Source: a virus (Duplodnaviria > Heunggongvirae > Uroviricota > Caudoviricetes). From it: DNA of 42,396 nucleotides. The number at the start of each line of letters is the position of its first letter. Position 1 is the stretch's first letter. The notes beneath the pieces are model-generated. The model had not been told where the DNA came from. It saw only the letters and a list, made by a program, of their open reading frames with translations, and did not search any database. Shown here piece by piece: positions 21,418 through 41,411 of the stretch. The stretch lies in the IMG/VR virus record IMGVR_UViG_2861064056_000003; one strand, written 5' to 3'. The position numbers and the translations under genes were made by a program.

Positions 21418-22089
21418 TTATACGCAAACGTCGTCTAAATGGTTCTGATAATGATGCAAAGTTGCAAGAAGTGCCACTTCATCAAGTGCTCTCACCGCCT
21501 CTTTCATTCCTACCCAGTGCAGGGAGTATGTTTCGCACCAGGTGGAACGAGAAACCGACAGCATTCCTGCTAGGGTAGATCCGGCCATCTCCTTAAAATC
21601 CTCGCGTTTATTTGCTGCTGCGACCGCCTGCACGGACAACCACACCAACGAAAGCAGGCGCTTAACTACTTTTCTCTGAGTTGACGCGGGGATGTTTCCT
21701 TTATAGCGACTCCAGACAGCCTCACAAATAGCTGTTTGGTGTTTGAATGCCAGGTTACCACCGTAGCAATAACGCAACCACGCTTGCTGACTTGCATCCA
21801 GCGAGTTCACAGAACGCCGCCAGGATGAATCAGCAAATTCAAAATCACTCATCGGCGGCGCGGGGCGACGTCTGCTGAAACTTTCCAGAGCGTAAACTGG
21901 CGTAACCAGAGCATCAACGGTCCGGTCCTCCAGCTGCACACGGTGAATATGTTTGCGTGGGTATGCGTTTTTGTCTGCCGGTGGGTGCTCACACAATGCT
22001 TCCAGTTGCCCCTTAGAACCACCAGACAAATCCCGCAATGCAGCGCGCAGTTTTATGCGGGTATATTCCAATAAATACTCGTTACTCAT
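21418..22089 (-). CDS. Late-gene antitermination protein Q-like
   Basis: 223 aa, Cys-containing, immediately upstream of the late promoter and lysis genes and after the YbcO-like gene. Confidence 0.5.
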   Translation of the reverse strand: MSNEYLLEYTRIKLRAALRDLSGGSKGQLEALCEHPPADKNAYPRKHIHRVQLEDRTVDALVTPVYALESFSRRRPAPPMSDFEFADSSWRRSVNSLDASQQAWLRYCYGGNLAFKHQTAICEAVWSRYKGNIPASTQRKVVKRLLSLVWLSVQAVAAANKREDFKEMAGSTLAGMLSVSRSTWCETYSLHWVGMKEAVRALDEVALLATLHHYQNHLDDVCV

Positions 22090-22382
22090 CAGATAAACTC
22101 CTCATCGCGCCAGATAGCCAGTGTTCTGAAAACTCCCTCAGCGTGCATCAACAACAATGAGTCGTGCTCGTAATCCGTTTTTGTACGTCCGTCGATGGCA
22201 TCGTGACACGCACTGCAGGCGATAGCGCCCTGCATATCGTGAGGTTTGATGGCTGTGCCGCACGTTCCGGCGAGACGATAATGAGCCAGTACGCTGGTTT
22301 CAGGATTGTGATTGCACACACCGGGGATACGCACAGTACAAGCGCGACTGCGTGCAGCTTTTCTCAGGTCGATTTTTTTCAT
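22089..22382 (-). CDS. YbcO-like protein (DUF1364, predicted nuclease of nin regions)
   Basis: RKAAR.R.C.VRIPGVCN.NPETSVLAH.RL.G.CGT..KP.D...AIACSACHD.ID.R matches recalled E. coli YbcO. Confidence 0.65.
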   Translation of the reverse strand: MKKIDLRKAARSRACTVRIPGVCNHNPETSVLAHYRLAGTCGTAIKPHDMQGAIACSACHDAIDGRTKTDYEHDSLLLMHAEGVFRTLAIWRDEEFI

Positions 22383-22975
22383 GATGTGTAATCCAGCAGC
22401 TGCGCGGCGGCATTTTCAGCGGCCTCCTGAGAGGCAAATGTGCGGAACAAAATATAATTCCACAGCACATCTAAAACGGCTGAATACAGTTGACCGAACT
22501 CAAGATCGTCCATCGCTGCAAACGAGATTGAACGAGGTACGCGCATCAAACTGCCGTCTGGCATCTGATGAACGTCATAAAACCCAGCTTCCATAATCGC
22601 CCATGCGCGAAACGCCTCGAACGACTTCACCGCACTGATACTCCCCGCGCGCTTTTCCGACTCATCGAGAAGATACTGATCAGCCAGCTCTGCCATGACA
22701 TCACCGTGTCCACCGTAATACGCCAGTAACTTAACGTAGCCGTGAACCAGTTCGCGCTCCGCAGGAGAAATAGCCCCTCCGGACGGATGCCAGTAATCAA
22801 AGCCCAGGTTGAGAAGTGAGAAAAATTTACGATGAAACGCGGGATTACGCGCCTGTTTGAAATCTGCATACACAACAGCACCTGGTTTGACTCGTTCAGT
22901 CAACCAGCGTTGCGTGTCTGGTGTCGCGGGTATTAGCGAACCGCCGGATACCCTGATAAATGAATGCTGCGCCAT
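22379..22975 (-). CDS. nin-region protein (DUF1367/YbcN-like)
   Basis: 198 aa directly upstream of the YbcO-like gene with overlapping start; family assignment from memory. Confidence 0.4.
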   Translation of the reverse strand: MAQHSFIRVSGGSLIPATPDTQRWLTERVKPGAVVYADFKQARNPAFHRKFFSLLNLGFDYWHPSGGAISPAERELVHGYVKLLAYYGGHGDVMAELADQYLLDESEKRAGSISAVKSFEAFRAWAIMEAGFYDVHQMPDGSLMRVPRSISFAAMDDLEFGQLYSAVLDVLWNYILFRTFASQEAAENAAAQLLDYTS

Positions 22976-23383: not shown

Positions 23384-24025
23384 TTATTTATCACTCCTGT
23401 AAATTGGAATTAACCATTTTCTAATCGTCGACGCTGCAGGTGGGTCAGAGTATTTCGCCACAAAAATACCGGATATGTATTGCACGCCACGCGATAATGG
23501 CGCTGTCGGGTTTTCAGTAAAAAAACGATCAGCCAGTTCAATGGCTTCGCTTTTTAATCTGTGCTGTGGTCGTCCTCCGCCCTTTGTTCCCAGGTATCGC
23601 GCCAGTTGTTTGAAACGGTAGGCGATGATTAACGGTCGCATCATCATATTGAAAAAATCGCGGGCATCGTTGTCAGCGCCTTGCGCTATCAACAGTGCAA
23701 AAAACAGATACGGGATTATGTACACTTCAGGAGATATACGAACCCGTTCACAAGTTGGTGGAGCCAACTCAATAAGTAAGTCAGCCAGCGGATTCCCCTT
23801 TTCTCCACGTTTGTAATAGCGATACAGCGGCCCGATATCAAGTTCACTCACGTCGATTTCAGGATGCCCGGCAACGACTGTACGTATCTCTTCTGCCAGA
23901 GCGTCAAATATTGCCCCGGTCCGTTCAAGATAGAGCCTCCGGGTCGAACCGCGATCATCCAACGCCCGTAACATATCTAACCGGCTAACGAAAGTTTCAG
24001 GCCAGTCCTCATAGAAGGTTTTCAT
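23384..24025 (-). CDS. Hypothetical protein (~213 aa), no recognised family
   Basis: ORF track; start taken at MKTFYEDW with a weak GAGGT RBS; divergent from 24269..24502. Confidence 0.45.
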   Translation of the reverse strand: MKTFYEDWPETFVSRLDMLRALDDRGSTRRLYLERTGAIFDALAEEIRTVVAGHPEIDVSELDIGPLYRYYKRGEKGNPLADLLIELAPPTCERVRISPEVYIIPYLFFALLIAQGADNDARDFFNMMMRPLIIAYRFKQLARYLGTKGGGRPQHRLKSEAIELADRFFTENPTAPLSRGVQYISGIFVAKYSDPPAASTIRKWLIPIYRSDK

Positions 24026-24268
24026 AATTACCTCGAATAATAAAAACTGCACTATTTGCACAATTTATTATTCGTTTTCACGCCGCTGAGTTCTATAAAA
24101 AAGAAAAAACCTCCGAGGCAGGGTTTTGTTATGGCTCGTTAAATCATCATCCAACTTTTTAGACTGAACGGTGATACTTGCAAATATTTGAAAATATGGG
24201 CTGGAACCCTATCTTATGATGTGCCTGGTAATTTATATTGTTGGGTCTTTATATCATGAGGAATCACT

Positions 24269-24502
24269 ATGGGTACGTTAGGCAACCAGCCGTGCAGAAG
24301 TCGTTATGAGTTCGATGATTTTAATTTAGCCAATCGAGCTGCGGCTCTTACTAAGTTAGCAAAAGAAACTGGTGTATCGGTGGATACCTTAATCAAACTT
24401 GAAATTGCTATGCAACTGAATCGGCTCAACTCCATCCTTATCGAAAACGGTGACAAGATGGACGAGAATCTGGCAGGTATTGGCGAGATACTGCAGAAGT
24501 GA
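24269..24502 (+). CDS. Small protein with probable helix-turn-helix
   Basis: 77 aa; RBS GAGGAA; LAKETGVSVDTLIKLE resembles an HTH; followed by a hairpin. Confidence 0.4.
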   Translation: MGTLGNQPCRSRYEFDDFNLANRAAALTKLAKETGVSVDTLIKLEIAMQLNRLNSILIENGDKMDENLAGIGEILQK

Positions 24503-24508
24503 GAGTAG

Positions 24509-24524
24509 CCCCTCTTCTGAGGGG
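24509..24524 (+). terminator. Hairpin CCCCTC-TTCT-GAGGGG after the 77-aa gene
   Basis: Perfect 6-bp stem directly 3' of the stop codon; short U-tract. Confidence 0.35.
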
Positions 24525-24801
24525 TTGCACATTTAAAATATTAAGGGCGGTCTTCTTCACGTACACAGTCACCTGGTCGAATCGTTCACGCATACTGAGT
24601 ACAAAAAATCTCAACGATAAGATCAGGTTAGACCTGTATTTTCCAGAAACATATAGACGCCTAAAAAAACACTAAACTCATGATTATCATGTATGTTTTT
24701 ACTGGAAACATTGAACCATCCACAATACAGCGTAAAAAGCAAGCAATTCACAAGATTTTAAAGTGATTTATCTGGAAGACTTTACTACTAACAGTTAATA
24801 T

Positions 24802-24846
24802 CGTACCAGAAGTGCAGAATTTGCACTTTTACAGGAATGTGGTACG
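24802..24846. promoter_or_regulatory. Nested dyad symmetry upstream of the ImmA-like gene
   Basis: Outer CGTACCA...TGGTACG and inner GTGCA-gaatt-TGCAC inverted repeats 55-100 bp upstream of the ATG at 24901. Confidence 0.4.
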
Positions 24847-24900
24847 GAACATGCTGTCTATATTTCAACCAATAATCGTAATGCAGTAACTGGAGGAGCT

Positions 24901-25389
24901 ATGGCTACCAACCCAAGAGAGCACGCCCGGCGAGTGCTGGACACGTTCTGGTGCGGGCGTGGTTTCCCTGTTGATCCAGCGAAAATTGCTCACGACATGG
25001 GATTAGATGTTTTTATTACCGATCTTCCTGGGAAAGTTTCTGGCGCACTGATTAAACAAAAAGATCAAGATCCAGCGATCTTTCTAAACAGTGATGACAA
25101 CAAAGTTCGTCAACGTTTTTCATGTGGGCATGAGTTGGGGCATTACATCGCCCGGCAAGCATCGCATAGCGATGAATATGAGTACGTTGATTTACGTGGC
25201 GAAACCGCAAGCGCCGGAACGCATCCTGATGAAATTTTTGCAAACAAGTTCGCAGCAGAACTTCTGATGCCGGTAGATGAGGTCAGAAAACTGCACGCTG
25301 ACGGTCAACCAAGTTATATAATGGCGCATTATTTTGGCGTATCTGACGATGCGATGACTTATCGTTTAAAGAACTTGAGGTTGGGGTAA
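24901..25389 (+). CDS. ImmA/IrrE-family zinc metallopeptidase (M78-type)
   Basis: RQRFSCGHELGHY signature (HEXXH after RxRF); strong RBS GGAGGAG; 162 aa. Confidence 0.7.
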   Translation: MATNPREHARRVLDTFWCGRGFPVDPAKIAHDMGLDVFITDLPGKVSGALIKQKDQDPAIFLNSDDNKVRQRFSCGHELGHYIARQASHSDEYEYVDLRGETASAGTHPDEIFANKFAAELLMPVDEVRKLHADGQPSYIMAHYFGVSDDAMTYRLKNLRLG

Positions 25390-25398
25390 CGCTTTAAA

Positions 25399-25914
25399 AT
25401 GCCATCGGATGACGATTTTAACAGCCGTTTCAAACAGGAAGTAGCACGCAGACTGAAGGATTCCCTCAACCTACACCGTCAGTTAGCAGAAGAGGTTGAG
25501 CCGGAGGACGATGAAACTCCGGTTCAGTCTCCTGACGAAGCTTCACCTCAGCCAAAGGTTTCGCACGCCCCCAAAAAAACGGCTGTCCGTATTCGCGGAA
25601 TAGCCAGAAAAAGAGCTGCCGAAGCTCGCAAAATGGCTGTAGCTGCGTCTAGCAAAAGAATTCCAACTGCTACACCCTCTCAACAAGTCACCCGTACTGA
25701 GAGTAAAATCTTGACCGAGTTCACATCTGTGAAACAGGTGAATTCACTTGATACCGAGCATGAGCGCAAACAACTCAACAACAAAGATTTTGAAGCAGAA
25801 ATCGCTCTAAAAAAACGATACGGGAAATGGTTCCTGATTATCCTTGCTTTCCAACTTCTGATAATGAATGGTGTATTTATTGCCGACGGCGCAGGTAAGC
25901 TGGAATTTGGGTGA
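25399..25914 (+). CDS. Charged protein with C-terminal TM segment, 3' end interrupted by IS1
   Basis: Start 10 nt after the ImmA-like stop; stop codon supplied by the IS1 end; frame continues in 26686..26780 once IS1 and one TSD copy are removed. Confidence 0.5.
   Translation: MPSDDDFNSRFKQEVARRLKDSLNLHRQLAEEVEPEDDETPVQSPDEASPQPKVSHAPKKTAVRIRGIARKRAAEARKMAVAASSKRIPTATPSQQVTRTESKILTEFTSVKQVNSLDTEHERKQLNNKDFEAEIALKKRYGKWFLIILAFQLLIMNGVFIADGAGKLEFG
25902..25909. repeat. Target-site duplication GGAATTTG, left copy
   Basis: Identical 8-mer immediately flanks both IS1 ends. Confidence 0.75.
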
Positions 25915-25964
25915 TGCTGCCAACTTACTGATTTAGTGTATGATGGTGTTTTTGAGGTGCTCCA

Positions 25965-26240
25965 GTGGCTTCTGTTTCTATCAGCTGTCCCTCCTGTTCA
26001 GCTACTGACGGGGTGGTGCGTAACGGCAAAAGCACCGCCGGACATCAGCGCTATCTCTGCTCTCACTGCCGTAAAACATGGCAACTGCAGTTCACTTACA
26101 CCGCTTCTCAACCCGGTACGCACCAGAAAATCATTGATATGGCCATGAATGGCGTTGGATGCCGGGCAACCGCCCGCATTATGGGCGTTGGCCTCAACAC
26201 GATTTTACGTCACTTAAAAAACTCAGGCCGCAGTCGGTAA
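25965..26240 (+). CDS. insA: IS1 InsA
   Basis: 91 aa [42 protein letters not shown]..., the IS1 InsA sequence. Confidence 0.9.
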
Positions 26241-26662
26241 CCTCGCGCATACAGCCGGGCAGTGATGTGATTGTCTGCGCTGAAATGGACGAACAGTGGG
26301 GCTACGTCGGTGCTAAATCACGTCAGCGCTGGCTGTTTTACGCGTATGACAGGATACGGAGGACGGTTGTGGCGCACGTCTTCGGTGAACGCACTCTGGC
26401 CACACTGGAGCGTCTTCTGAGCCTGCTGTCGGCCTTTGAGGTCGTGGTATGGATGACGGATGGCTGGCCGCTGTATGAATCCCGCCTGAAGGGAAAGCTG
26501 CACGTAATCAGCAAGCGTTACACTCAGCGAATTGAGCGGCATAACCTGAATCTGAGACAACATCTGGCAAGGCTGGGACGGAAGTCACTGTCGTTCTCAA
26601 AATCGGTGGAGCTGCATGACAAGGTCATCGGGCATTATCTGAACATAAAACACTATCAGTAA
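26159..26662 (+). CDS. insB: IS1 InsB (made as InsAB' by frameshift)
   Basis: 167 aa ORF with the IS1 InsB sequence (..[28 protein letters not shown]..). Confidence 0.85.
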
Positions 26663-26677
26663 GTTGGAGTCATTACC

Positions 26678-26685
26678 GGAATTTG
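26678..26685. repeat. Target-site duplication GGAATTTG, right copy
   Basis: Matches 25902..25909. Confidence 0.75.
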
Positions 26686-26708
26686 AGGATTTAACACTAC
26701 AGTTGTAC

Positions 26709-26780
26709 ATGGGCGGTACTTTGACAGAGGTATTCGGCCTCGTGCTGGTCGTGACAAAATACCTTTTTAAACGCAAGTAA
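26709..26780 (+). repeat. Copy 1 of a ~75-bp direct repeat encoding MGGTLTEVFGLVLVVTKYLFKRK
   Basis: ~92% identical to 30132..30203; here in frame with the IS1-interrupted gene 25399.. Confidence 0.6.
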
Positions 26781-27027
26781 CTCTCTCGGTCCAACAGTCT
26801 TTCGAAGGCCCTGATCAAAGGGCCTTGATAAATTAGCAGTGCGTTGAAAACAGATAGTTATTCCCATCAGTTCCAACGTAATACACATCAAAAAAATCAC
26901 CATTCTTTTGCTCTAACGTCAACACCTACCCTTAAAAAAATAATTCTCCAAGAATGAGAAAGTTATTGTGTGTATTAGATAAGATATGAGCTGACACATC
27001 TATGGCGTGGAGCCAAATTTAATATGA

Positions 27028-27059
27028 CAGTCCGCTCTGTGCCATAAGCGGACTGTCAA
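27028..27059 (-). terminator. Hairpin GACAGTCCGC-N12-GCGGACTGTC downstream of the low-GC gene
   Basis: Perfect 10-bp inverted repeat; A/T-rich on the minus-strand 3' side. Confidence 0.4.
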
Positions 27060-27242
27060 TAAACAGATTCACTTGTAAATCTTGAAGCTATACATATTTA
27101 CTTTCAATGATAAATAAAAGAACTATCCAAAAATCACTGAGAGCATATTTTAACTAACCCTCCGCTACTATTAACATAAATTTCACCCAACCATAATTAA
27201 ATTGATACATATAGCAACTTACCTTGATACGAATCATCTGGG

Positions 27243-27941
27243 TTATATTTTTCCATATTTTTTTCCGTCAAATCGAATCATGCCAGGATCAAGAAAATTA
27301 ATTAAATCGATTAACGCGTGCTGTATTCTGATTAGCCTTTCTTTATAAATTCCGATATCTCTTGTCATATTTATCACTTCATTGTTTAAATCTAAAAAAA
27401 ATGGCTCATTGATAAAGCAATTTTCCTTTGTGAAACTGCCGTAACCTATGCAATCAAATCCAGTATCTGTTGATATCAGCATCTTTTCTGCAATAGCTCT
27501 CTGCTCTCCTATGAAAAACATAAAATACTGACCAAAGACGTCTGTTTGGATTAATGAGTTAATATTGTTCTGTAATCTAATAAACTCCCTCATTTTTTTA
27601 TTTTTTTCTAGGCTAAGGTATTGAATGTCTATGCGGGCAGCTTCTGTCCATGCAAAAAACTGGGAAAAAAGAAAAACAGTATTGTTGATAACATAATCTT
27701 GTTGGCGCTTATTCCCATTATGATAAAACTCTTCAATGAACCCCAATTCTAATATATTATAAATACGGCTTTGTAAGTCTGAAGCTGAGCGAATTAACGG
27801 TTCAATATAGTACTGATGTTTTCTCCTTACATCCAGTGATTCATTGAGCTTGTTTATTCTATTCTGATTATAAGTAGATATAGCAATAGAGATTATAGCT
27901 ATTGCACCACTAATAAAGCTTGAAATTAATGCCGTACCCAT
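27243..27941 (-). CDS. Hypothetical membrane-anchored protein (232 aa), low GC, no recognised family
   Basis: N-terminal hydrophobic segment (ALISSFISGAIAIISIAI); RBS AAGGA; AT-rich codon usage unlike the rest of the prophage. Confidence 0.55.
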   Translation of the reverse strand: MGTALISSFISGAIAIISIAISTYNQNRINKLNESLDVRRKHQYYIEPLIRSASDLQSRIYNILELGFIEEFYHNGNKRQQDYVINNTVFLFSQFFAWTEAARIDIQYLSLEKNKKMREFIRLQNNINSLIQTDVFGQYFMFFIGEQRAIAEKMLISTDTGFDCIGYGSFTKENCFINEPFFLDLNNEVINMTRDIGIYKERLIRIQHALIDLINFLDPGMIRFDGKKYGKI

Positions 27942-28504
27942 CTAAAAGTCCTTTGATTCTTGCTTGGTTAACAAAATGACATAATTTTATTTAATGCCAT
28001 AACAACTTAACAATATATCATAATATGATTATTATGGTGTAGCTTGTCGCATCTACGCTCCATTACAAACAGATGTAAGATATAACCTATATGTTTTAGC
28101 CAGCAAATTCGAAAGCATTCAAAGTAGTCTCATCGAACTCTCGAAACCCTATGTCTTCGGGTATAAAATATTTAAATCCATTTGCATAATATCGACTCAT
28201 GTTTATTATATTCTCCCCATTCACCATTAAGATTTGACATTATTTTCAACAATCGGTTATTGCAAGATTGAAATATATTTTTACTTGACACAATATTCCA
28301 TGTAGCCCAGCGATTCGACTTACCCCCAACTATACGGACAATCTAAATTAAATCGATGATTTTTTGATACATTCTCCTCTCTCCATTACTTTATGTTTTT
28401 GTTCCCCAAAAATACCTTGCTCTCTAAAAAATAATTGTTCTTTAAGTTCAAAATCGAGATCTACATGAGCGTTAGATACAAAGCTAATATGTTGAAATGT
28501 CTTT

Positions 28505-28513
28505 CCCCCCCCC
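28505..28513. repeat. C9 homopolymer (G9 on the minus strand) in AT-rich ORF-free DNA
   Basis: Read directly; on the minus strand the tract follows an ATG opening a 55-codon ORF (28348..28515). Confidence 0.8.
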
Positions 28514-29129
28514 ATAACGGCATTGTTATCTAAACTATGTTACACAAATATAATATTACCCTTTCAACGTAATCCAAGAATAAGATTAATGCCATTATAT
28601 ATATCATAAATATGATATTTTGTATATTTTTATCATTTAGCCTTGATTGTACTAGGTGTACTCTCAACGAAGTAGGGAAAGTCTGTTCCTCGCTCACAGC
28701 TGCCCTTCAGTAAGCGAAAAAATGCCTACTCGGTGCCATATACAGCCATTGTTATTAACAGCAGGGAATAATTCAAAACTGAAATTAAATATCTACCTTT
28801 TACAGTAGAAATAGTTCCTCCAGGACACTATCCATTGCCGGGCACAATCACTCGGGGTATAACGATATAAAATATGTTCATGATAGTGCAGGTTCGTATA
28901 TTAAGTTCAGCAGCGAAAACATGCCTTACAGGTTTCCGGTTTTGGGAGCGTCGTTACAGGATCCTGCGCATACCGTTCCCATCTGTTGAATTAAAGGTTT
29001 CACAGCCTTTGCCGATATCACCTTTTACCTTACCTGTGATGCGTTCAGTGCTCAGCGTTGTTTACTGTAGCTCTCGGGACTGATTACAGACCGCGTCTTA
29101 AAAACCAATCCTTACTCTAAAGGGAATTC

Positions 29130-30053
29130 ATGAGATTAAAATACTCAGTACTCTTACTCGCCATTGCCCTTACAGGCTGTGATAACAAAAAAGATGAGAT
29201 CGGTTGTTCTTCGGAAATAACCCAGTCAGCTCTCATGGATTTATTAAAAAAATCTGCTTATGAAGGACTCTCTGAACAGGTCGATAAATACCCTGATGTC
29301 ACTAATCAGACCAAACGAAGCACACTGGACAAGATCAAACTAGCCATCTCTGAGATCTCCACAACATCAAGTGACACGGGCAGCACAATGAAAACTTGTG
29401 AAGGGACCGTGACGATGACTCTATCTGCGAACGAGTACGTCCAGCTTTCAGATGCTTACAGAAAGAATTTTAATCGTAATCTCGATAAGCAAATGGAAAG
29501 CCTGTTTTTGGAGAACAACGCAAACGCCTTTTCAAAACGTATCACCTACACCGTGCAGGCGACCGACGATCAGAAAAACGTTTTTGTAAAAACCTCTACT
29601 GATAATCCGATATCAGTGGGCGCCGCTTTACTGACATCGCTTTCCATTATCACCCCGATCGTTGAGCAGCAGAAAATCCAGCAGGCTAAGGATGCCCAAC
29701 AGAGTCAAATTGAAGCGGAACAACAGGTGCAACTCAGGGCGCAAGAACAGGCTAAGTATGAGGCGGAGAAGCAAATAGAGAGACAGGCACAACTTCAGCC
29801 GCAAAAAGCTGACAACCTTGATCAGTCCCGAATGGCATTTGCGAATGCCGACTCTGATTTGAGTACCGTCTGGAGCAAGTTAACCCCGGCGAAGAAAAAA
29901 GATTTGCTGCCTTCTCAGCGTCAGTGGATCAAAACTAAGGATGCTATGTGCGGTAAAGTTTCAATGCAGGGAACAGATGCTGAAGTCAAGAAAATGGTCG
30001 ACTGCCAGACGCAAATGACCCTTTCAAGAATCGCTTTCCTCAGAAACCAATAA
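29130..30053 (+). CDS. Lipoprotein with C-terminal DUF1311-like domain (LprI-type lysozyme inhibitor family)
   Basis: Lipobox LTGC after a signal peptide; Q-rich coiled region; C-terminal ..W.KL....K..L...Q..WIK..D..C.. pattern; RBS AAGGGA. Confidence 0.6.
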   Translation: MRLKYSVLLLAIALTGCDNKKDEIGCSSEITQSALMDLLKKSAYEGLSEQVDKYPDVTNQTKRSTLDKIKLAISEISTTSSDTGSTMKTCEGTVTMTLSANEYVQLSDAYRKNFNRNLDKQMESLFLENNANAFSKRITYTVQATDDQKNVFVKTSTDNPISVGAALLTSLSIITPIVEQQKIQQAKDAQQSQIEAEQQVQLRAQEQAKYEAEKQIERQAQLQPQKADNLDQSRMAFANADSDLSTVWSKLTPAKKKDLLPSQRQWIKTKDAMCGKVSMQGTDAEVKKMVDCQTQMTLSRIAFLRNQ

Positions 30054-35334: not shown

Positions 35335-35811
35335 TCATGCATGGTGGTCTTGCGCAGTGCGTATCACTGCTCCTCGCGTCGCTACCAGCGCCGCTATTGC
35401 TTCGTCAATTTCCTGAATAGTTAACTCTGGCGCGAAGTGGAGATGTACAGCGTTAATCGCTTCCACCCCTTCTTTTGCCGCCAGCGTTGCCAGCAAAACG
35501 GGATCGCCCGGCGACTCCAGACGTGCCCGCCGTTCTGCGGGTAGCACGGCTTTCATCACACTGGCCAGCACCTGAGTTTTTCGGCGCGCCGCCGTTGTCT
35601 CGCCACGTAACCAGCGAAAGATTTTCTGCCGATTGTTGTTGATGGCTCTCCAGTCCACGTTGCCGTCCGCGTCCTCAAATTCATGTAGTCTCAACTCATC
35701 ATTGCGTCCCTGACTGAACCAGGCCCGGCAGATTTCAATCGTGACGAGTTCCTGCCCTGCCCTTGCCGCCCAGGTCAAAATCTCTTTTTGTAATTCCTCT
35801 TGGTTTTCCAT
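35335..35811 (-). CDS. YdaT-like early regulatory protein (CII position)
   Basis: 158 aa; NNNRQKIFRWLRGET resembles the recalled YdaT segment NQQNIYHRWLKGET; RBS AGGAGA. Confidence 0.45.
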   Translation of the reverse strand: MENQEELQKEILTWAARAGQELVTIEICRAWFSQGRNDELRLHEFEDADGNVDWRAINNNRQKIFRWLRGETTAARRKTQVLASVMKAVLPAERRARLESPGDPVLLATLAAKEGVEAINAVHLHFAPELTIQEIDEAIAALVATRGAVIRTAQDHHA

Positions 35812-35833
35812 AGCGTCTCCTGTCGCTAAAAAT

Positions 35834-35849
35834 TGATTACGCTTAATCA
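35834..35849. promoter_or_regulatory. Palindrome TGATTA-CGCT-TAATCA between the cro-like and YdaT-like genes
   Basis: Perfect 6-bp inverted repeat in the 58-bp gap. Confidence 0.25.
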
Positions 35850-35869
35850 GATTTGGGGCTCACCAACAG

Positions 35870-36100
35870 TTAAGCTGCTTCCGTTTTAGGCAAGCTGTCA
35901 TCTGGGTTTGGGTAAAGATCCGGTCTAAGATCATGAGGGGTCACGCGCCATTCAAGAGCTTCAGATGTGCGCAAAACCTCTTCACCGGGAACCCGTCCTT
36001 TGAACCAGAGGCTTACCGTTTGTGGTTTTTTCCCTAATCGCCGCCCTAACTCGGATTGACTCATTACGGAAAGAATTTTGTCTTGCAGTTGTTTATCCAT
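35870..36100 (-). CDS. Cro/YdaS-like HTH regulator
   Basis: Start taken at MDKQ with RBS AAGGAG; SQSELGRRLGKKPQTVSLW HTH; divergent from the repressor gene. Confidence 0.65.
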   Translation of the reverse strand: MDKQLQDKILSVMSQSELGRRLGKKPQTVSLWFKGRVPGEEVLRTSEALEWRVTPHDLRPDLYPNPDDSLPKTEAA

Positions 36101-36198
36101 ATGGACTCCTTGTGTCCGCGTCATCATTACAAACAATAACTGTAATTACAAATTATATTTGCAATGCTCCCTACAATTAAACCTTGTATCCTTACGGT
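36101..36198. promoter_or_regulatory. Divergent promoter/operator region (OR-like)
   Basis: 98-bp AT-rich gap with TTACAAA at 36127 and 36146, inverted TTTGCAA at 36158, and dyad TTACA-N9-TGTAA at 36127..36145. Confidence 0.5.
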
Positions 36199-36612
36199 AT
36201 GAACACAAAAACGAAAAACATGGCTTTTGCTAGCCGACTACAACGGATTCTAAAAGACTTAGGCTGGTCTCAATCTGAGTTAGCTCGCCATATTGGGGTT
36301 ACGGCTCAATCAGTTCAGGCATGGTGTAATGGGGTAACTCCAAGAAAAGATAAATTAGACAAGCTAGCAAAAGTGACCGGATACCCTGTTCATTTTTTCT
36401 TCATGAATGAAGGGGAATATTTGGATGAATCCACACTACACCCGGGTAATTACAATCAAGAACTAACCCCGCAAGAACAGGCTCTACTGCAACTATTCAG
36501 AGGACTGCCTGAGAGCGAAAAAAATAAATTAATCAATGAGCTAAAAGAAAAAAGAGAGCACTTCGATCTACTGCTAAAAGAACTACTTGAAGCCAAAAAC
36601 CAGACAAAATAG
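36199..36612 (+). CDS. DicA-like HTH repressor without a peptidase domain
   Basis: XRE-type HTH (QSELARHIGVTAQSVQAW) plus C-terminal LTPQEQALLQLFRGLPESEKNKLINELKEKREHFDLLLKELLEAKNQTK resembling the recalled E. coli DicA C-terminus; no SD before the ATG. Confidence 0.7.
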   Translation: MNTKTKNMAFASRLQRILKDLGWSQSELARHIGVTAQSVQAWCNGVTPRKDKLDKLAKVTGYPVHFFFMNEGEYLDESTLHPGNYNQELTPQEQALLQLFRGLPESEKNKLINELKEKREHFDLLLKELLEAKNQTK

Positions 36613-36730
36613 TTCAGTTCAAATTTCCAGGCCAGCCGCTGCTGGCATGCAACTTTCCCCTAACACAAAAACACCTTTACACAGTGAATATTTTTTTGCC
36701 CCTCACTACAAATTATTTTTTAAAAACACA

Positions 36731-36759
36731 TTGACCATTACAAATACAAATTGTAAAGT
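36731..36759 (+). promoter_or_regulatory. Putative PL-like promoter with operator dyad
   Basis: TTGACC, 17-bp spacer, TAAAGT; the spacer holds dyad TTACAAAT-ACA-AATTGTAA sharing the OR half-site. Confidence 0.35.
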
Positions 36760-37095
36760 CACTTTCATCAACAACGCTTACCCAGCGGCAGTTGTTCAGA
36801 AACACGTTCTGACAGCCGGAAAGACGGCACCAAATTTTGCGCGTCGGCGCCAACACGGTGACAGAGGGAAAGACTTCACCGGCATATGGCACATGTGTCG
36901 AAGCGGTCTGGATGGAAGCGGAGCCTTAACGCGTTGTCTCCATAGCAGGTAGCCGGAATGTGCAAGCCACAGCCAGGTATGAGCGATTGATTCACCATCA
37001 AGGCGATACGGTGTGACCACCAGGGAAGAGTCCTGGCTACAACACGAGAGCGCACTTCATCGACTCAACTTTGAGCTTTGTCGTTAAATTTTGAA

Positions 37096-37181
37096 ATGGC
37101 GGAGTGCGCTCCCGGTTGTGGTGAACAGGTGTTTAACGGGAACTCCCTGCCCGTTACCCGGTTCGATTCCGGGCGCCCATC
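37096..37181 (+). other. tRNA-like element with canonical T-arm, not a confident tRNA
   Basis: CCCGG-TTCGATT-CCGGG T-arm and a preceding AACGGG..CCCGTT stem-loop, but the acceptor stem fails in two of seven pairs and there is no CCA. Confidence 0.15.
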
Positions 37182-37325
37182 ATCAATTTGCTGTGTTTAG
37201 TCTTTGCCCAGTCCGCACGATGGGCCATTTTTTCACACAGCCAGGTTTTATCGCTGTGCCTGAGTCCCCAACAGGAGAGGCCAAACCCGCAGCGTGACAC
37301 CAGGGAAAGACCGGAGGAAGTACCA

Positions 37326-37338
37326 CGCCTGACCAGCG
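37326..37338 (+). repeat. Intercistronic motif CGCCTGACCAGCG, copy C
   Basis: Same 13-mer as 32897..32910 and 35321..35333 in the plus orientation; GCCTGACCAGC recurs at 37349 and 37384. Confidence 0.55.
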
Positions 37339-37622
37339 TTGACCATGAGCCTGACCAGCTCAAAACAGGAAAGACCAGCCCGGGCCTGACCAGCCCTGTA
37401 CGGTCGTAATGGAAACATAACGACGCCGGAAACGTAACCGGCACCCTTTAGATAGCAAAAGACCCGCACAAGGCGGGCCAGTTACCCCGAACGGCGACCA
37501 AACCATTCGGATTTATCACAAGTGACCAAACTTGTGATGAGGAAAGACCAACGACACTGACGCTATGGAAGCTGATCAATATTCGCTGATCGGCTCTGAG
37601 TATACATTACCAAGGAGTCGCT

Positions 37623-37943
37623 ATGGAAGCGCGCACCATCCCAGTAACACTCTTTATTCATTATGCAACTTCAACTTTCAGCCACGAAAAGCTGCTTGTT
37701 GCGACTGTTGATATGTCAAAAAATTTTCCAGACAGGTACATCCTTCTGGAAAGCCGCGAAATTGAAATTACCGTTAACCAGCCCGAGCCAATCGACATCA
37801 TCGGTTTACAGGTCGAGCAACTGCGTGAACAAAAACAGAAAACAGTCGCCGACGCCCAACAGCGTATTGCTGCTATCGATGACAAAATCCAGCAGTTACT
37901 TTGCATCGAATACACGCCAGATACCGATGAGCTCCCCTACTAA
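37623..37943 (+). CDS. Hypothetical early protein
   Basis: 106 aa; strong RBS AAGGAG; first clear gene of the plus-strand operon. Confidence 0.45.
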   Translation: MEARTIPVTLFIHYATSTFSHEKLLVATVDMSKNFPDRYILLESREIEITVNQPEPIDIIGLQVEQLREQKQKTVADAQQRIAAIDDKIQQLLCIEYTPDTDELPY

Positions 37944-37973
37944 AAACCACTGACCTGTAATGAGGAAAGACCA

Positions 37974-40190
37974 ATGACCATTTTTAACGGCTTGTTAGAA
38001 GCGAAAAAAGGCGCGCTCAAAAACGGCGCGATCCCGGCGCTGGCCATCGCCATCGCCGCCCCTAACAAAAAAGTTGCCGAGAACATCATCATCGGCAAAT
38101 TGTGGGAAGCCTACCCTGACCACGGCGACAACTATTTCAAACCTAAAATCTGGGAAGATGCCCCGGGCCAACCGCGCCCAGGCGTCGGTGAGTTTGATGA
38201 GACGTTTGCCACAGAACACAGTTTTGATGGCGAAAAATGGGTAGTTAACACTCCTGTTGATTCAGATTGCAGTTCAGCAGATATCTCACAGGTTAGCGAC
38301 CTGATGAAACTGCCGGCTCGTGAACGATTCGCCGCCGTTCTGCTGTTCAGCCACGACGCCAACGAAGTCGACAGTGAATTGCTTGTGCAGACGCGTGAAT
38401 ACCTGGAGATGCTCGATAACAGTGATACTGACAGTGAGGATGAGGTTGACGCGTTTAACCGCATCGTTCTTGATGCCATGGTGGCGTGTAAGCCCATCGA
38501 GTACATGCATATTGCTGGATTGAATAATCTGGTACATGCAATTTTGGCAAGTTGCGATACCCAGGAACAAAACCCGACCAGTTGGACTATCTCCAAATTT
38601 ATAAAAAAATGGGTAGAGAATCCCGGTAAACGAGATGAAATGCTGCCGGAGGTAAAACCAGAAACAGCATCCGCACGTCCTTACAAACAGACTCACGCCA
38701 CTCTGGATCGTGAAATTGCCTGCGCCCTGTTACCTGTTGCCCCGGAAAAAATCACCCCCAGCATCCTGAAAGCGGCAGACGAAATAATCAGTCAGGACAG
38801 GGAAGATTTTAAACGCTGGTCAATGGCCTTGCGCACAACGGATCAGATCCTTGCCTATGACCGCGCATCAGTATTCGGTGTTATTCAGAGCGCCCCCGCA
38901 AAAGACACGTACCACTTCCCACAATCCCTGCGCAGTCACATCGACAACTGGCTGCAAGCTAACGGGCAGCGTGATGCAAATGCTGTTGAAGAGAAGCCAA
39001 AGGAAGCAGCACCCAAGGATGATGTAAAAGTCACCAACCACGGCGGCGGACGATTCTCAATTGATGGGATGATGTCAGAAACACCCTCAAATCAGGGCGA
39101 AAAAAGCGAAGCTGCAAATGCTGGAGAACGTAGTTTGCAGCAGTTGCGTGAGCAGTTTGTCACGCCTCGCCATGTGTATGACGTACCTGAAAATAACGCC
39201 GTATCACAGAGGGAACCTGCAGCTATTACCCTGGCAGAAGAGACTCCTCCACAAGAACAACTTAGCGAGCAGGTAAAGGATCTGGTGCAGAACGTTGACG
39301 CGCTGGTTGAGCGGATCCATGCCGAAGAGCACAAGCGGCAGAATGCAATCTCAGCTATCGAAACGGAGTTAAAGGACTCAGATGACACGGATAACCTGGC
39401 ATTGTGGAAGAACGTATTCAAAACCGATGAGCGCTTCACCAGTGCTTTCTCTCAGAATGGCGGCGGCACATCCATCAACGGCACTTATATAGCGATGAAA
39501 GCGACTCGCGAATTTGGGCCATTTGGTATTGGCTGGGGGGTAGAGGTGCTGGAGGAGCGCTTTGATAAAGGCGCACCAATAGTTCGCAAAAAACAGGTTG
39601 GTGAAAAAATAGAATGGGATCTGATTCAAGACGGTGTTGGCGGGTACCTATGTGAAATGCACCACACCATGAAAGTGAGAGTCTGGTACATATTGAATGG
39701 GGTACGCGGTGAGTCCGAGGCTTACGGATGCACACCTTATATCTACGACACTAAATACGGACCAACAAGCGACGGCGAAGCACCGAAGAAATCCTGGACG
39801 GATGCTGTTAAGAAAGCGCTATCCCCTCTCGGATTCAGCGCCGATATTTTCATGGGCCTGTACGACAATCCGGAATACCGCCAGAGGAATAAAGCTGAGT
39901 TTGATATCAAGAATGCCAGCGAGAATGCGGAAGATGCTACCCGTCTGCGTAAGGAACTGGATGAGAAGCTTATCAACGTTGCCAATACGCTGGCCGCCGC
40001 GGTAACCGCCAACGAAGTAAACAAGGTATTTGGCCTCATCGCCCGCGAAGTGGATGTACACAGGAAAGCAGCGGAAACCAAAGGCGATAAAGAATATTCA
40101 TCGTATCTGGGATCACGTCTGCGCCGTATCACCGACATTAAAACTGAACGCCTCGCCGCCCTTACCGCTGCACAGGAGCAAACAGCATGA
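37974..40190 (+). CDS. Rad52/Sak-like single-strand annealing protein with ~480-aa N-terminal extension
   Basis: C-terminal half has YIAMKATREFGPFGIGWG and SWTDAVKKALSPLGFSADIFMGLYD, resembling Rad52-family motifs (YIEG...ANE.FG.NGW and TDA.KRAL..FGN..G..LYD); acidic linkers; 738 aa. Confidence 0.5.
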   Translation: MTIFNGLLEAKKGALKNGAIPALAIAIAAPNKKVAENIIIGKLWEAYPDHGDNYFKPKIWEDAPGQPRPGVGEFDETFATEHSFDGEKWVVNTPVDSDCSSADISQVSDLMKLPARERFAAVLLFSHDANEVDSELLVQTREYLEMLDNSDTDSEDEVDAFNRIVLDAMVACKPIEYMHIAGLNNLVHAILASCDTQEQNPTSWTISKFIKKWVENPGKRDEMLPEVKPETASARPYKQTHATLDREIACALLPVAPEKITPSILKAADEIISQDREDFKRWSMALRTTDQILAYDRASVFGVIQSAPAKDTYHFPQSLRSHIDNWLQANGQRDANAVEEKPKEAAPKDDVKVTNHGGGRFSIDGMMSETPSNQGEKSEAANAGERSLQQLREQFVTPRHVYDVPENNAVSQREPAAITLAEETPPQEQLSEQVKDLVQNVDALVERIHAEEHKRQNAISAIETELKDSDDTDNLALWKNVFKTDERFTSAFSQNGGGTSINGTYIAMKATREFGPFGIGWGVEVLEERFDKGAPIVRKKQVGEKIEWDLIQDGVGGYLCEMHHTMKVRVWYILNGVRGESEAYGCTPYIYDTKYGPTSDGEAPKKSWTDAVKKALSPLGFSADIFMGLYDNPEYRQRNKAEFDIKNASENAEDATRLRKELDEKLINVANTLAAAVTANEVNKVFGLIAREVDVHRKAAETKGDKEYSSYLGSRLRRITDIKTERLAALTAAQEQTA

Positions 40191-40756
40191 GCACTGCTAT
40201 CGCTATTGCAAAAGAATATGCCAGTCTGATTGACCTGTTAGAAACCGCCGATGAACTGACGCCAGAGATGATCGCCGACACGCTTGAAGGCATGGAAGGA
40301 GAACTGGGAGACAAACTGGACGCCATGATGGTCATCTGCCGTAATTTACAGGGCAATGCCAATACCTGCGCTGAAGAAATGTCTCGCCTGGCAACCCGTA
40401 AGACGTCCTTTGAAGGCAAGGAAAAAGCAATTCGAAAGCATATGCTCACCTGCCTGCAAGCTGCTGGCCTGGATAAACTGAAAACCGCAAAAAACACATT
40501 TACTGATGCACAGGGGGCTATCCGGGTAATTATCGATAGCAAAGATAAGATCCCGGATGAGTATGAGGGCGTGTCACTTGTTGATGTAGAAACGGTTATT
40601 ACACCAAACAAGCGAGCCATTAAAGAAGTGATTGAATCTGCGGAGGCGGTTGCCGCCGAAATACTGGCGCGTGGAGAAACACCACCAGCCGAGTTATTAA
40701 ACCCGGTACCAGGCGCACATCTGGAACGCGGCGAACGGTCACTGAGGATACGCTAA
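40187..40756 (+). CDS. Gp157-family protein
   Basis: 189 aa; ATGA overlap with the annealing-protein gene; ..DSKDKIPDEYEG.. resembles the Gp157 family pattern. Confidence 0.5.
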   Translation: MSTAIAIAKEYASLIDLLETADELTPEMIADTLEGMEGELGDKLDAMMVICRNLQGNANTCAEEMSRLATRKTSFEGKEKAIRKHMLTCLQAAGLDKLKTAKNTFTDAQGAIRVIIDSKDKIPDEYEGVSLVDVETVITPNKRAIKEVIESAEAVAAEILARGETPPAELLNPVPGAHLERGERSLRIR

Positions 40757-40938
40757 TGCTTAAACTCACATTAAAGCGTGGTGACGCGGTTCACCTGGTA
40801 CTTGCCGATGGTACCAATGGCATTATTGAAGCACGGAGCCGCTGCGAACTTGGGCTACACCTGCCAGAAAACATTAAGGTCACTCGGGAGAAATCGGCAT
40901 TCACCCCACAAGAACTGATTACGCCTAATCAGAAATAA
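40756..40938 (+). CDS. Small protein (60 aa), loosely CsrA-like at the N-terminus
   Basis: TAATG overlap with the upstream gene; MLKLTLKRGDAVHL.. has weak resemblance to CsrA MLILTRRVGETLMI.. Confidence 0.35.
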   Translation: MLKLTLKRGDAVHLVLADGTNGIIEARSRCELGLHLPENIKVTREKSAFTPQELITPNQK

Positions 40939-40987: not shown

Positions 40988-41212
40988 ATGCTGCGATGGC
41001 AACCGGGAGCAACTCTGCTCTCCGCATTTGATATCAAAATTGGTCGACTGTCGGCCAGCGTCAGGAAACAGACTTTGACCGAGTCTGATATTGCCCGTGC
41101 CTGCCAGAAGGCAGATGACGCAATAAGCTACATAATGAGGAAAGACCATGAAAAGCGATCACGACATAATCACCAGAGAAGAAATGGTCGAGCTGACGGG
41201 AAGCCCACTTAA
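40988..41212 (+). CDS. Hypothetical small basic protein
   Basis: ATG at 40988 preceded by RBS GGAGGA; overlaps the next gene by 64 nt. Confidence 0.3.
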   Translation: MLRWQPGATLLSAFDIKIGRLSASVRKQTLTESDIARACQKADDAISYIMRKDHEKRSRHNHQRRNGRADGKPT

Positions 41213-41411
41213 ATCAAAGCAATGTGAGGCTCTTCGCCGGGCTGGAATTTTCTTCATGGAAAGGGCTGACGGACACCCAAAAACAACCTGGGGCCATTTC
41301 ATGAACCCAATAAAATTTCGCAATTTACAGGAGGTGACGACGCGAAAAGATGATGAACCTGATTTTGGAGCAATATTTAATGGCCGGAAAGAGAAAGAAC
41401 CCAGCAGATAA
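41148..41411 (+). CDS. Excisionase-like protein (DUF4224-type, directly upstream of int)
   Basis: 87 aa preceded by AATGAGGAAAGACC; position and size fit small integrase-adjacent directionality factors. Confidence 0.45.
   Translation: MKSDHDIITREEMVELTGSPLKSKQCEALRRAGIFFMERADGHPKTTWGHFMNPIKFRNLQEVTTRKDDEPDFGAIFNGRKEKEPSR

Follow-up and report, generated by a model that had tools for sequence, protein, structure and literature searches.

Two overlapping genes occupy positions 37974 to 40756 of a 42,396-nt stretch of Caudoviricetes DNA (IMG/VR record IMGVR_UViG_2861064056_000003), the whole of which we will call the window. The first gene (37974..40190, RefSeq WP_000151806.1) encodes a protein of 738 amino acids (aa) and has a GAGGAAA ribosome-binding site 6 nt before its ATG. 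The second (40187..40756) encodes a 189-aa protein of the Sipho_Gp157 family, which we will term Gp157. (These genes, their domains, and the two small genes beside them are all on the + strand.) The TGA of the first gene and the ATG of the second are joined in an ATGA overlap, within ...GGAGCAAACAGCATGAGC..., as an earlier, preliminary description of this DNA had said. We find that the 738-aa protein combines an N-terminal region related to that of RecE with a predicted Rad52-type annealing domain, and we consider it likely that this annealase, working with Gp157, is the homologous-recombination (Rec) module of the prophage.

Searched as a whole, the 738-aa protein matches no Pfam family and, by phmmer, no sequence in the PDB. 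Among 1.84 billion representative proteins, searched exhaustively, there were 2,559 relatives. About 30 of these are full-length (35-53% identity); hundreds of others stand alone, are 240-290 aa long, and match about residues 472-700 of the query, beginning at their own N-termini. Because the stand-alone relatives match only this part, the C-terminal part of the protein is an independent domain. The preliminary description had placed a Rad52/Sak-type domain in the C-terminal third, behind a long N-terminal extension, and had remarked that phage annealases are usually about 200-300 aa long; the start of the annealing domain at about residue 472 and the size of the stand-alone relatives agree with this picture.

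The structure predicted for the C-terminal domain has the fold of the Rad52 N-terminal domain, with a beta-hairpin and a beta-beta-beta-alpha core, and the putative annealing core covers approximately residues 472-640 (39387..39893). When residues 465-738 were aligned with 80 stand-alone relatives (alignment A1), 38 of the 81 members matched Rad52_Rad22 (PF04098, best E = 3e-6). A profile search of a 5.8-billion-protein collection recovered stand-alone relatives at 40-48% identity to the window domain, some of which have a precomputed PF04098 assignment and the NCBI name "Rad52/Rad22 family DNA repair protein." One stand-alone relative, P0312 (44% identity to the window domain, E = 2e-58), leads to human RAD52, which provides its nine best PDB sequence matches (E = 0.015). 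Via P0312, the signature ..KKS-TDA-KKAL--LGF.. falls on K144-G159 of RAD52, so K613 and K614 of the window protein would correspond to K152 and R153 of RAD52. (By the same transitive alignment, T148 and D149 of RAD52 map to T609 and D610.) K613 and K614 are invariant or near-invariant in the family.

Several results weigh against this assignment. First, the window domain itself reaches 13.6 bits (E = 0.066), short of the 20.3 bits that Rad52_Rad22 requires, and profiles of the family find no match among PDB sequences, so that family membership rests on structure prediction and on transitive homology. Second, the DNA-binding site of RAD52 consists of R55, Y65, K152, R153, and R156 (PMC9989933), and R55, Y65, and R156 have no conserved counterpart, which leaves just two of the five residues conserved. 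With these points taken together with the predicted fold and the PF04098 matches of the relatives, the prediction of a Rad52/Sak-type single-strand annealing domain is supported.

Beyond the core, residues 641-738 (39894..40187) are predicted to form a bundle of three long helices (at residues 169-273 of the AlphaFold2 (AF2) model). The alignment has eight invariant residues in this tail: R659, E661, D663, N680, E681, R691, A700, and R715. The tail is a candidate partner-binding module.

The positive claims of the preliminary description are supported, with a refinement for the N-terminal part of the protein, for which it had recognized no similarity. Between residues 233 and 336 (38670..38981), the most conserved block, the protein matches the exonuclease VIII (ExoVIII) model PRK09709 of NCBIfam (profile positions 262-370, E = 1.9e-12), and its matches to the RecE-like families phrog_607 (E = 6e-25) and phrog_2082 (E = 6e-21) are confined to residues 232-336 or so. 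AF2 models this block as helical, with a predicted local distance difference test score (pLDDT) of 90-97. When profiles of the window-type and RecE-type N-termini were compared with hhalign, residues 50-331 aligned with RecE residues 46-354 (256 columns, 99.5% probability, E = 2.5e-22). This alignment includes another helical block, at residues ~110-225 (38301..38648), for which AF2 predicts helices at 115-223. Judged by these similarities, the first ~335 residues constitute a diverged version of the N-terminal, non-catalytic part of RecE/ExoVIII. The alpha/beta "head" at residues 1-95 (37974..38258) is of a different type, PF27430. (This is a precomputed assignment from outside the Pfam set that we used for scanning.) PF27430 is present on N-terminal fragments of the family and never on the stand-alone Rad52-like proteins.

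The scaffold is followed by an acidic linker (residues 337-470, 38982..39383), and here the preliminary description was right: aspartate and glutamate make up 20% of residues 336-470 as well as 19% of residues 96-225. AF2 predicts disorder over about 345-430 (pLDDT 36-53) and then a long helix at 432-468. The linker contains a short motif, NHGGGRFSIDGMM (residues 355-367, 39036..39074), which is conserved in alignment A2. In the window protein the form GxGxFS[IV]DGL occurs at residue 357, and the looser pattern GxGxF[SGA][IVLM][DE]x[LMIF] is found at 25 of 55 fused loci as well as in gp07 of phage ZF40 and in a chimeric protein, P0125, both of which are discussed below. Another linker motif, RGE[YF]V[ED]GIS, is found in RecE, in a protein of phage HannyBb, and in the chimeras P0130 and P0125, and is lacking from the window protein. 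The linkers are mosaics of short motifs, some of them common to proteins with different C-terminal domains.

The similarity to RecE raises the question of whether the protein is a nuclease, as its annotation implies. The families phrog_2489 and phrog_7838, which match the window protein, are annotated as "exonuclease," and in RefSeq and at NCBI the protein and its kin are named "hypothetical protein," "phage-associated endonuclease," or "exonuclease family protein." Together with genuine homology to the N-terminal region of RecE, these names would fit an enzyme akin to RecE whose catalytic domain is divergent or cryptic. In RecE, though, the nuclease is PF12684 (residues 615-850), and the Pfam family "Exonuc_VIII" (PF06630) is the first ~200 residues. 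The Pfam scan matched the window protein to neither PF06630 nor PF12684, whereas Rac RecE matches PF12684 at E = 4e-28, and with 46 bits the window protein stays far below the cutoff of 1269 for the ExoVIII equivalog of NCBIfam. Among 31 diverse homologs, a single alanine is the only invariant residue within the first 470, which argues against a hidden active site. We rejected a cryptic N-terminal nuclease as a candidate because the predicted model has no nuclease fold, PF12684 is missing, and there are no conserved active-site candidates. That the protein is a nuclease thus seems extremely improbable, and the "exonuclease" and "endonuclease" labels look like transitive errors, given that the protein has no nuclease domain and no conserved active site. 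The preliminary description had regarded a match between the N-terminus and a known exonuclease as a result that would count against it. Formally, the RecE homology is such a match; the part that matches lies outside the RecE nuclease domain, and no nuclease fold is modeled there.

The identity of the second gene is clear. The 189-aa protein scores 101 bits against PF05565 (cutoff 28.6, E = 9e-29), which is matched by all 17 of the diverse orthologs that we scanned, so the Gp157-like gene of the preliminary description is confirmed. The pairing is conserved as well. A scan of one genome per species yielded 80 loci, in 77 of which the gene for the single-strand annealing protein (SSAP) was detected. 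A Gp157 homolog lies immediately 3' of the SSAP gene in 75 of these 77 loci, with an overlap of 4 nt in 61 loci and of 1 nt in 13. Both the fused form (55/57) and the stand-alone form (20/20) are paired in this way; of the two exceptions, one is a truncated gene and the other a contig end. What is conserved as a unit is the SSAP-Gp157 pair.

As for what Gp157 does, phrog_253 ("Mu Gam-like end protection") matches the 189-aa protein (E = 1e-46), and the protein is homologous to the "MuGam" protein of HK140 (E = 5e-13) and to a "Mu Gam-like" protein of ZF40. Sipho_gp157 genes also occur in the same position as Mu gam beside erf and sak4 genes (Steczkiewicz et al., 2021, PMC8093625). Because Gp157 takes the place of Mu Gam-type proteins beside other annealases, it would most likely protect linear DNA ends or neutralize RecBCD. 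Other results count against this assignment. A profile of 75 Gp157 sequences gave a probability of 0.6% against Mu Gam itself with hhalign (a weak test, with a single-sequence template and no comparison of structures), none of 17 Gp157 members matched the Mu Gam family PF07352 at E <= 1, and Gp157 had no match among PDB sequences. As homology to Mu Gam was not reproduced, the proposed end protection comes from annotation and gene position only, the Mu Gam label itself going back to phrog_253 and to PMC12315714.

The surroundings of the pair are those of a lambdoid early-left operon. Its order is a cI-like repressor gene (36184-36612), a leader of about 1 kb free of open reading frames (ORFs), orf106 (37623..37943), the fusion gene, the Gp157 gene, orf60 (40756..40938), xis for excisionase (41148-41411), and int for integrase (41350 onwards). 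Genes for cro-like and cII/YdaT-like proteins, an O-like initiator, and a DnaB-like helicase run in the opposite direction to the module. This contiguous cluster between the immunity region and xis/int fits the position of a lambdoid Rec module. The prophage around it has complete replication, lysis, packaging, and structural genes, and the module apparently resides in a complete lambdoid prophage.

Orf106, a possible member of the module, is a full-length match to phrog_2479 (E = 6e-53). A homolog (by phmmer) lies directly 5' of the fusion gene in most fused-type loci, a cluster of these homologs spans 37 loci, and orf106 is absent from the stand-alone loci of Pseudomonas. Orf60 matches phrog_2482 (E = 2e-36). 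About half of the fused-type loci have a phmmer homolog of it, mostly right after the Gp157 gene and sometimes ~1 kb beyond, and the phages BUCT708 and ZF40 have small ORFs at this position. (Orf60 also has a weak CsrA-like Pfam match, E = 0.097.) Overall, the two small genes accompany the fused-type module in many Enterobacterales loci and are absent from the stand-alone pairs of Pseudomonas.

Two other regions of the window deserve mention. First, the ~1 kb at 36612-37623, between the cI-like gene and orf106, contains no credible ORF and no RefSeq annotation, and its DNA is partly kept in related prophages and in BUCT708 (71% over 869 nt). We counted 8 terminator-like hairpins at 35800-38000 (2.5 expected), 5 of them on the minus strand at 37371-37479, and the one Rfam match in the leader is a weak RprA-like one (37125-37235; 37 bits, gathering score 70). 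This could be an early-left leader, an antitermination RNA, or a small RNA. Second, the region 24000-30000 has a low GC content for this prophage (0.40-0.43) and + strand cargo ORFs, including a metalloprotease-like ORF (24901-25389), a transposase-like ORF (26159-26662), and further uncharacterized ones. Lying between the lysis and early regions, it resembles a moron or cargo island.

There is no exonuclease gene between the cI-like gene and xis/int, and no processive exonuclease elsewhere in the window, as the preliminary description had said. The only nuclease-like ORF of the window encodes a 96-aa HNH protein (22089-22382) in the nin region, 15 kb away. There is also no RecT in the window, and the gene 3' of the fusion gene is that for Gp157. 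Nor did we find a consistent nuclease partner in the 77 related loci: an HNH_3 gene lies ~1 kb downstream in 9 Providencia/Proteus-type loci, and otherwise there is the host uvrC at the flank of the prophage. The other recurrent neighbors, besides orf106, are immunity, replication, and integration genes. The preliminary description had also called the missing nuclease noteworthy, and in this it overstated the case. Nuclease-less lambdoid Rec modules, in which an annealase is combined with an anti-RecBCD or end-protection function, are a recognized class (the P22/HK140 type; Zheng et al., 2025, PMC12315714), so the absence is not unusual. The window contains 2 Chi sites, which is the chance level. 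This low count is as expected, Chi-poor genomes being the rule among phages that bring Rec and anti-RecBCD functions of their own (PMC3784561; PMC12315714).

The nin region (- strand) also encodes a NinB/Orf-type mediator (22379-22975), which together with the HNH protein lies just upstream of a Q-like antiterminator. The phage therefore has a second and separate recombination accessory function.

The module is widespread. The window is DNA of E. coli, and at least 80% of the segment 36000-42396 is present in 433 of 5,426 complete E. coli genomes (~8%), including strains of sequence type 131 (ST131), integrated next to tRNA-Leu/Cys/Gly, pgsA, and uvrC. In our scan, the fused form was found at 57 loci in more than 25 genera of Enterobacterales, and the stand-alone form mainly in Pseudomonas. 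The same fusion is thus found in other prophages, and in two phages isolated or induced as particles. BUCT708 has the same five-gene order as the window. In the Pectobacterium phage ZF40, gp07 and gp06 have the same overlap as the window pair, and gp07 aligns with the window protein from end to end at 36% identity (E = 3e-128). In all, the gene order of the module recurs in BUCT708, ZF40, and 55 fused-type loci.

These data bear on the possibility that the fusion is a non-functional chimera, left over from a decaying RecE gene in a defective prophage after illegitimate recombination had swapped the nuclease domain. The strong mosaicism of lambdoid early regions and the many partial database entries for the family would both suit a chimera. 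In addition, ISEc52 splits the 738-aa gene in several E. coli genomes (NZ_CP107114.1, NZ_CP103562.1, and NZ_CP124410.1 are among the examples that bear insertion sequences (IS)), and others have IS150 or IS1 in this 6.4-kb region, with IS150 between orf60 and xis. The interrupted genes do indicate that a resident prophage can do without the module, and this we count against a role in recombination. On the other hand, the full-length architecture is kept at 30-55% identity across more than 25 genera, the coupling to Gp157 is maintained, the module is present in the viable phages ZF40 and BUCT708, and the prophage around it has the complete gene sets listed above. Furthermore, the folded parts are under purifying selection: relative to the ortholog from E. 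whittamii, the ratio of nonsynonymous to synonymous substitution rates (dN/dS) is 0.13 in the scaffold, 0.08 in the Rad52 core, and 0.11 in the tail, as compared to 0.92 in the linker (from one ortholog pair and small counts). The fusion is a real architecture, not a product of chance or of assembly, and we regard a non-functional chimera as very unlikely.

The RecE-type N-terminus is also attached to other domains. In P0130 (775 aa), a stretch corresponding to residues 1-518 of Rac RecE (49% identity, E = 6e-156) precedes a Rad52-like domain that shares 62% identity with that of the window protein. P0125 has the same build, with a RecE-type N-terminus followed by a Rad52-like domain. In gp33 of Escherichia phage HannyBb (823 aa, labeled "exonuclease"), residues 20-339 match residues 18-331 of the window protein (26% identity, E = 2e-19), and the C-terminus is a DnaQ-like DEDD 3'-5' exonuclease (PF16473, E = 2e-67). 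Its gene adjoins xis/int, with neither an annealase gene nor a Gp157 gene beside it. A search with the scaffold profile, followed by domain typing, also turned up a RecE-type head on a DEDD exonuclease (NCBI "RecE family exodeoxyribonuclease") and a single cluster in which a RecE-type head is followed by RecT (P0434). On the sequence evidence, the family combines two types of head with a common middle block and with at least three kinds of DNA-processing domain at the C-terminus, to which RecT would add a fourth. In P0434 (632 aa), residues ~1-375 of RecE stand directly before the RecT domain (residues 410-632). Either an annealase has been fused to the RecE scaffold a second time, independently, or a decaying Rac-like prophage has undergone an in-frame deletion.

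What would such a scaffold be for? One idea is that the RecE N-terminus would act as a portable scaffold for targeting, delivering interchangeable DNA-end-processing domains to one common target in the host or on the DNA (for instance the replisome, the end of a dsDNA molecule, or one of the nucleases or helicases of the host). It would consist of a PF06630 or PF27430 head, the common helical block, and the acidic linker with its short docking motifs, and its cargo would be a PD-(D/E)XK 5'-3' exonuclease, a DEDD 3'-5' exonuclease, a Rad52-type annealase, or possibly RecT. In the Rad52 fusion, the handshake between exonuclease and annealase would then be replaced by a recombinase that needs Gp157 as its only partner. 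We offer this proposal tentatively, and put it on the improbable side.

A related possibility is that the scaffold brings in a nuclease or helicase of the host, be it RecBCD, RecJ/RecQ, or another, which would make the protein a self-sufficient "recruit and anneal" recombinase. The lack of a phage exonuclease invites this explanation, and the scaffold also occurs in RecE and in the DEDD-exonuclease fusions, which act at dsDNA ends, with conserved linker motifs that are common across effector types. Also, full-length RecE, and not its nuclease domain alone, enhances linear-linear recombination (reviewed in PMC11611040). This seems unlikely because the same scaffold is found on proteins that are already exonucleases, which speaks against nuclease recruitment as its general role, and because the stand-alone SSAP-Gp157 pairs of Pseudomonas work without it.

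Another alternative is that the SSAP-Gp157 pair serves mainly in conflict (anti-defense, superinfection exclusion, or as a decoy) and not in the phage's own recombination. Work on phage resistance in Streptococcus thermophilus provided the first description of Gp157, and the short motifs in the linker are typical of protein-protein hijacking. Defense systems are also often targeted at, or triggered by, phage SSAPs (PMC11846896). However, PADLOC defense models matched no component of the module, the module sits at the canonical Rec position in the early-left operon, and the Rad52 signature helix is under strong purifying selection. We therefore think it quite improbable that conflict is the main function, although such a role would be compatible with one in recombination.

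This returns us to a Rec module formed by the annealase and Gp157. From the gene structure, predicted folds, homologies, synteny, and purifying selection established above, we infer how it might work. The 738-aa protein would be the phage's SSAP, with a RAD52/Sak fold at about 472-640. By analogy with RAD52, Mgm101, and Sak, it would form an oligomeric ring, hold ssDNA in a basic groove that includes K613 and K614, and anneal it without ATP. Annealing would serve circularization of the genome, formation of concatemers, and recombination-dependent replication. Gp157 would be the obligate partner, with the proposed action on linear ends or on RecBCD. Because the phage supplies no exonuclease, the ssDNA would come from host nucleases and helicases or from replication forks, as in the P22 and HK140 modules. 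The scaffold, with three predicted folded domains and the acidic linker, probably tethers the DNA-end-processing domain that it carries to a common partner or substrate.

A protein that is very probably the prophage's recombinase, and that is carried by ~8% of complete E. coli genomes and by many Salmonella, is thus labeled as hypothetical, exonuclease, or endonuclease, and surveys that tie phage recombination genes to Chi content, mosaicism, or dependence on RecBCD would misclassify such phages. Apart from boosting linear-linear recombination, the N-terminal ~560 residues of RecE have gone for decades without an assigned function; now that the scaffold is also seen on an annealase and on an exonuclease unrelated to that of RecE, this function becomes experimentally approachable. 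The module is also a candidate recombineering system, comprising a Rad52-type annealase, one small partner, and no exonuclease, and it is native to E. coli, Salmonella, Klebsiella, Serratia, Yersinia, and Proteus.

We found no description of a RecE-scaffold/Rad52 fusion in the searchable literature, and the architecture appears to be previously undescribed. The "Sak" entries in Table S6 of Bobay et al. (2013) are mostly paired with Abc2, in P22-like prophages, and show no link to the window family. Zheng et al. (2025) mention "RecE-2" proteins, which are related to RecE and are described there as having no nuclease domain and no known role; our guess is that these are the Rad52-RecE-scaffold family. 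Table 1 of the same paper lists ZF40 with an anti-RecBCD function only and no annealase, and with many Chi sites (19/2; PMC12315714). In ZF40, gp07, which is annotated as "exonuclease," is a full-length member of the family and is coupled to the Gam-like gp06 (2315-4992). Thus, ZF40 is apparently one of the misclassified cases, and its combination of the module with abundant Chi sites may merit a second look.

Among the closest known systems are the Rad52/Sak SSAPs, such as human RAD52, yeast Mgm101, Sak of the lactococcal phage ul36, and the Rad52/Rad22 proteins of Pseudomonas and Stutzerimonas. Compared with these, the window protein is about three times longer, with ~470 residues of RecE-type scaffold and linker before the annealing domain, and it has a conserved three-helix tail and is paired with Gp157. 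Like the P22 class, and HK140 in particular (in which SAP-4 is paired with "MuGam," PMC12315714), the module has an annealase gene beside a Gp157/"MuGam"-type gene, no phage exonuclease, and a Chi-poor genome. Unlike that class, its annealase is predicted to be of the Rad52 type rather than the RecT or Erf type and is built on a RecE scaffold, and the order is SSAP and then Gp157, with translational coupling.

The HannyBb gp33 and ECO26_1771-type fusions, the latter from enterohemorrhagic E. coli, have the same window-type scaffold, the xis/int neighborhood, and linker motifs, but they end in a DEDD 3'-5' exonuclease (PF16473) instead of an annealase and have no adjoining Gp157. Finally, the window protein is like RecE of the Rac prophage in that it has a homologous N-terminus followed by an acidic disordered linker and is encoded at the same early-left position beside xis/int. 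It differs from RecE in having a predicted Rad52 annealing domain where RecE has its PD-(D/E)XK nuclease (RecE residues ~564-866), in having a PF27430 rather than a PF06630 head, and in being encoded beside Gp157 rather than RecT. The chimeras P0130 and P0125 directly bridge RecE and the window fusion.

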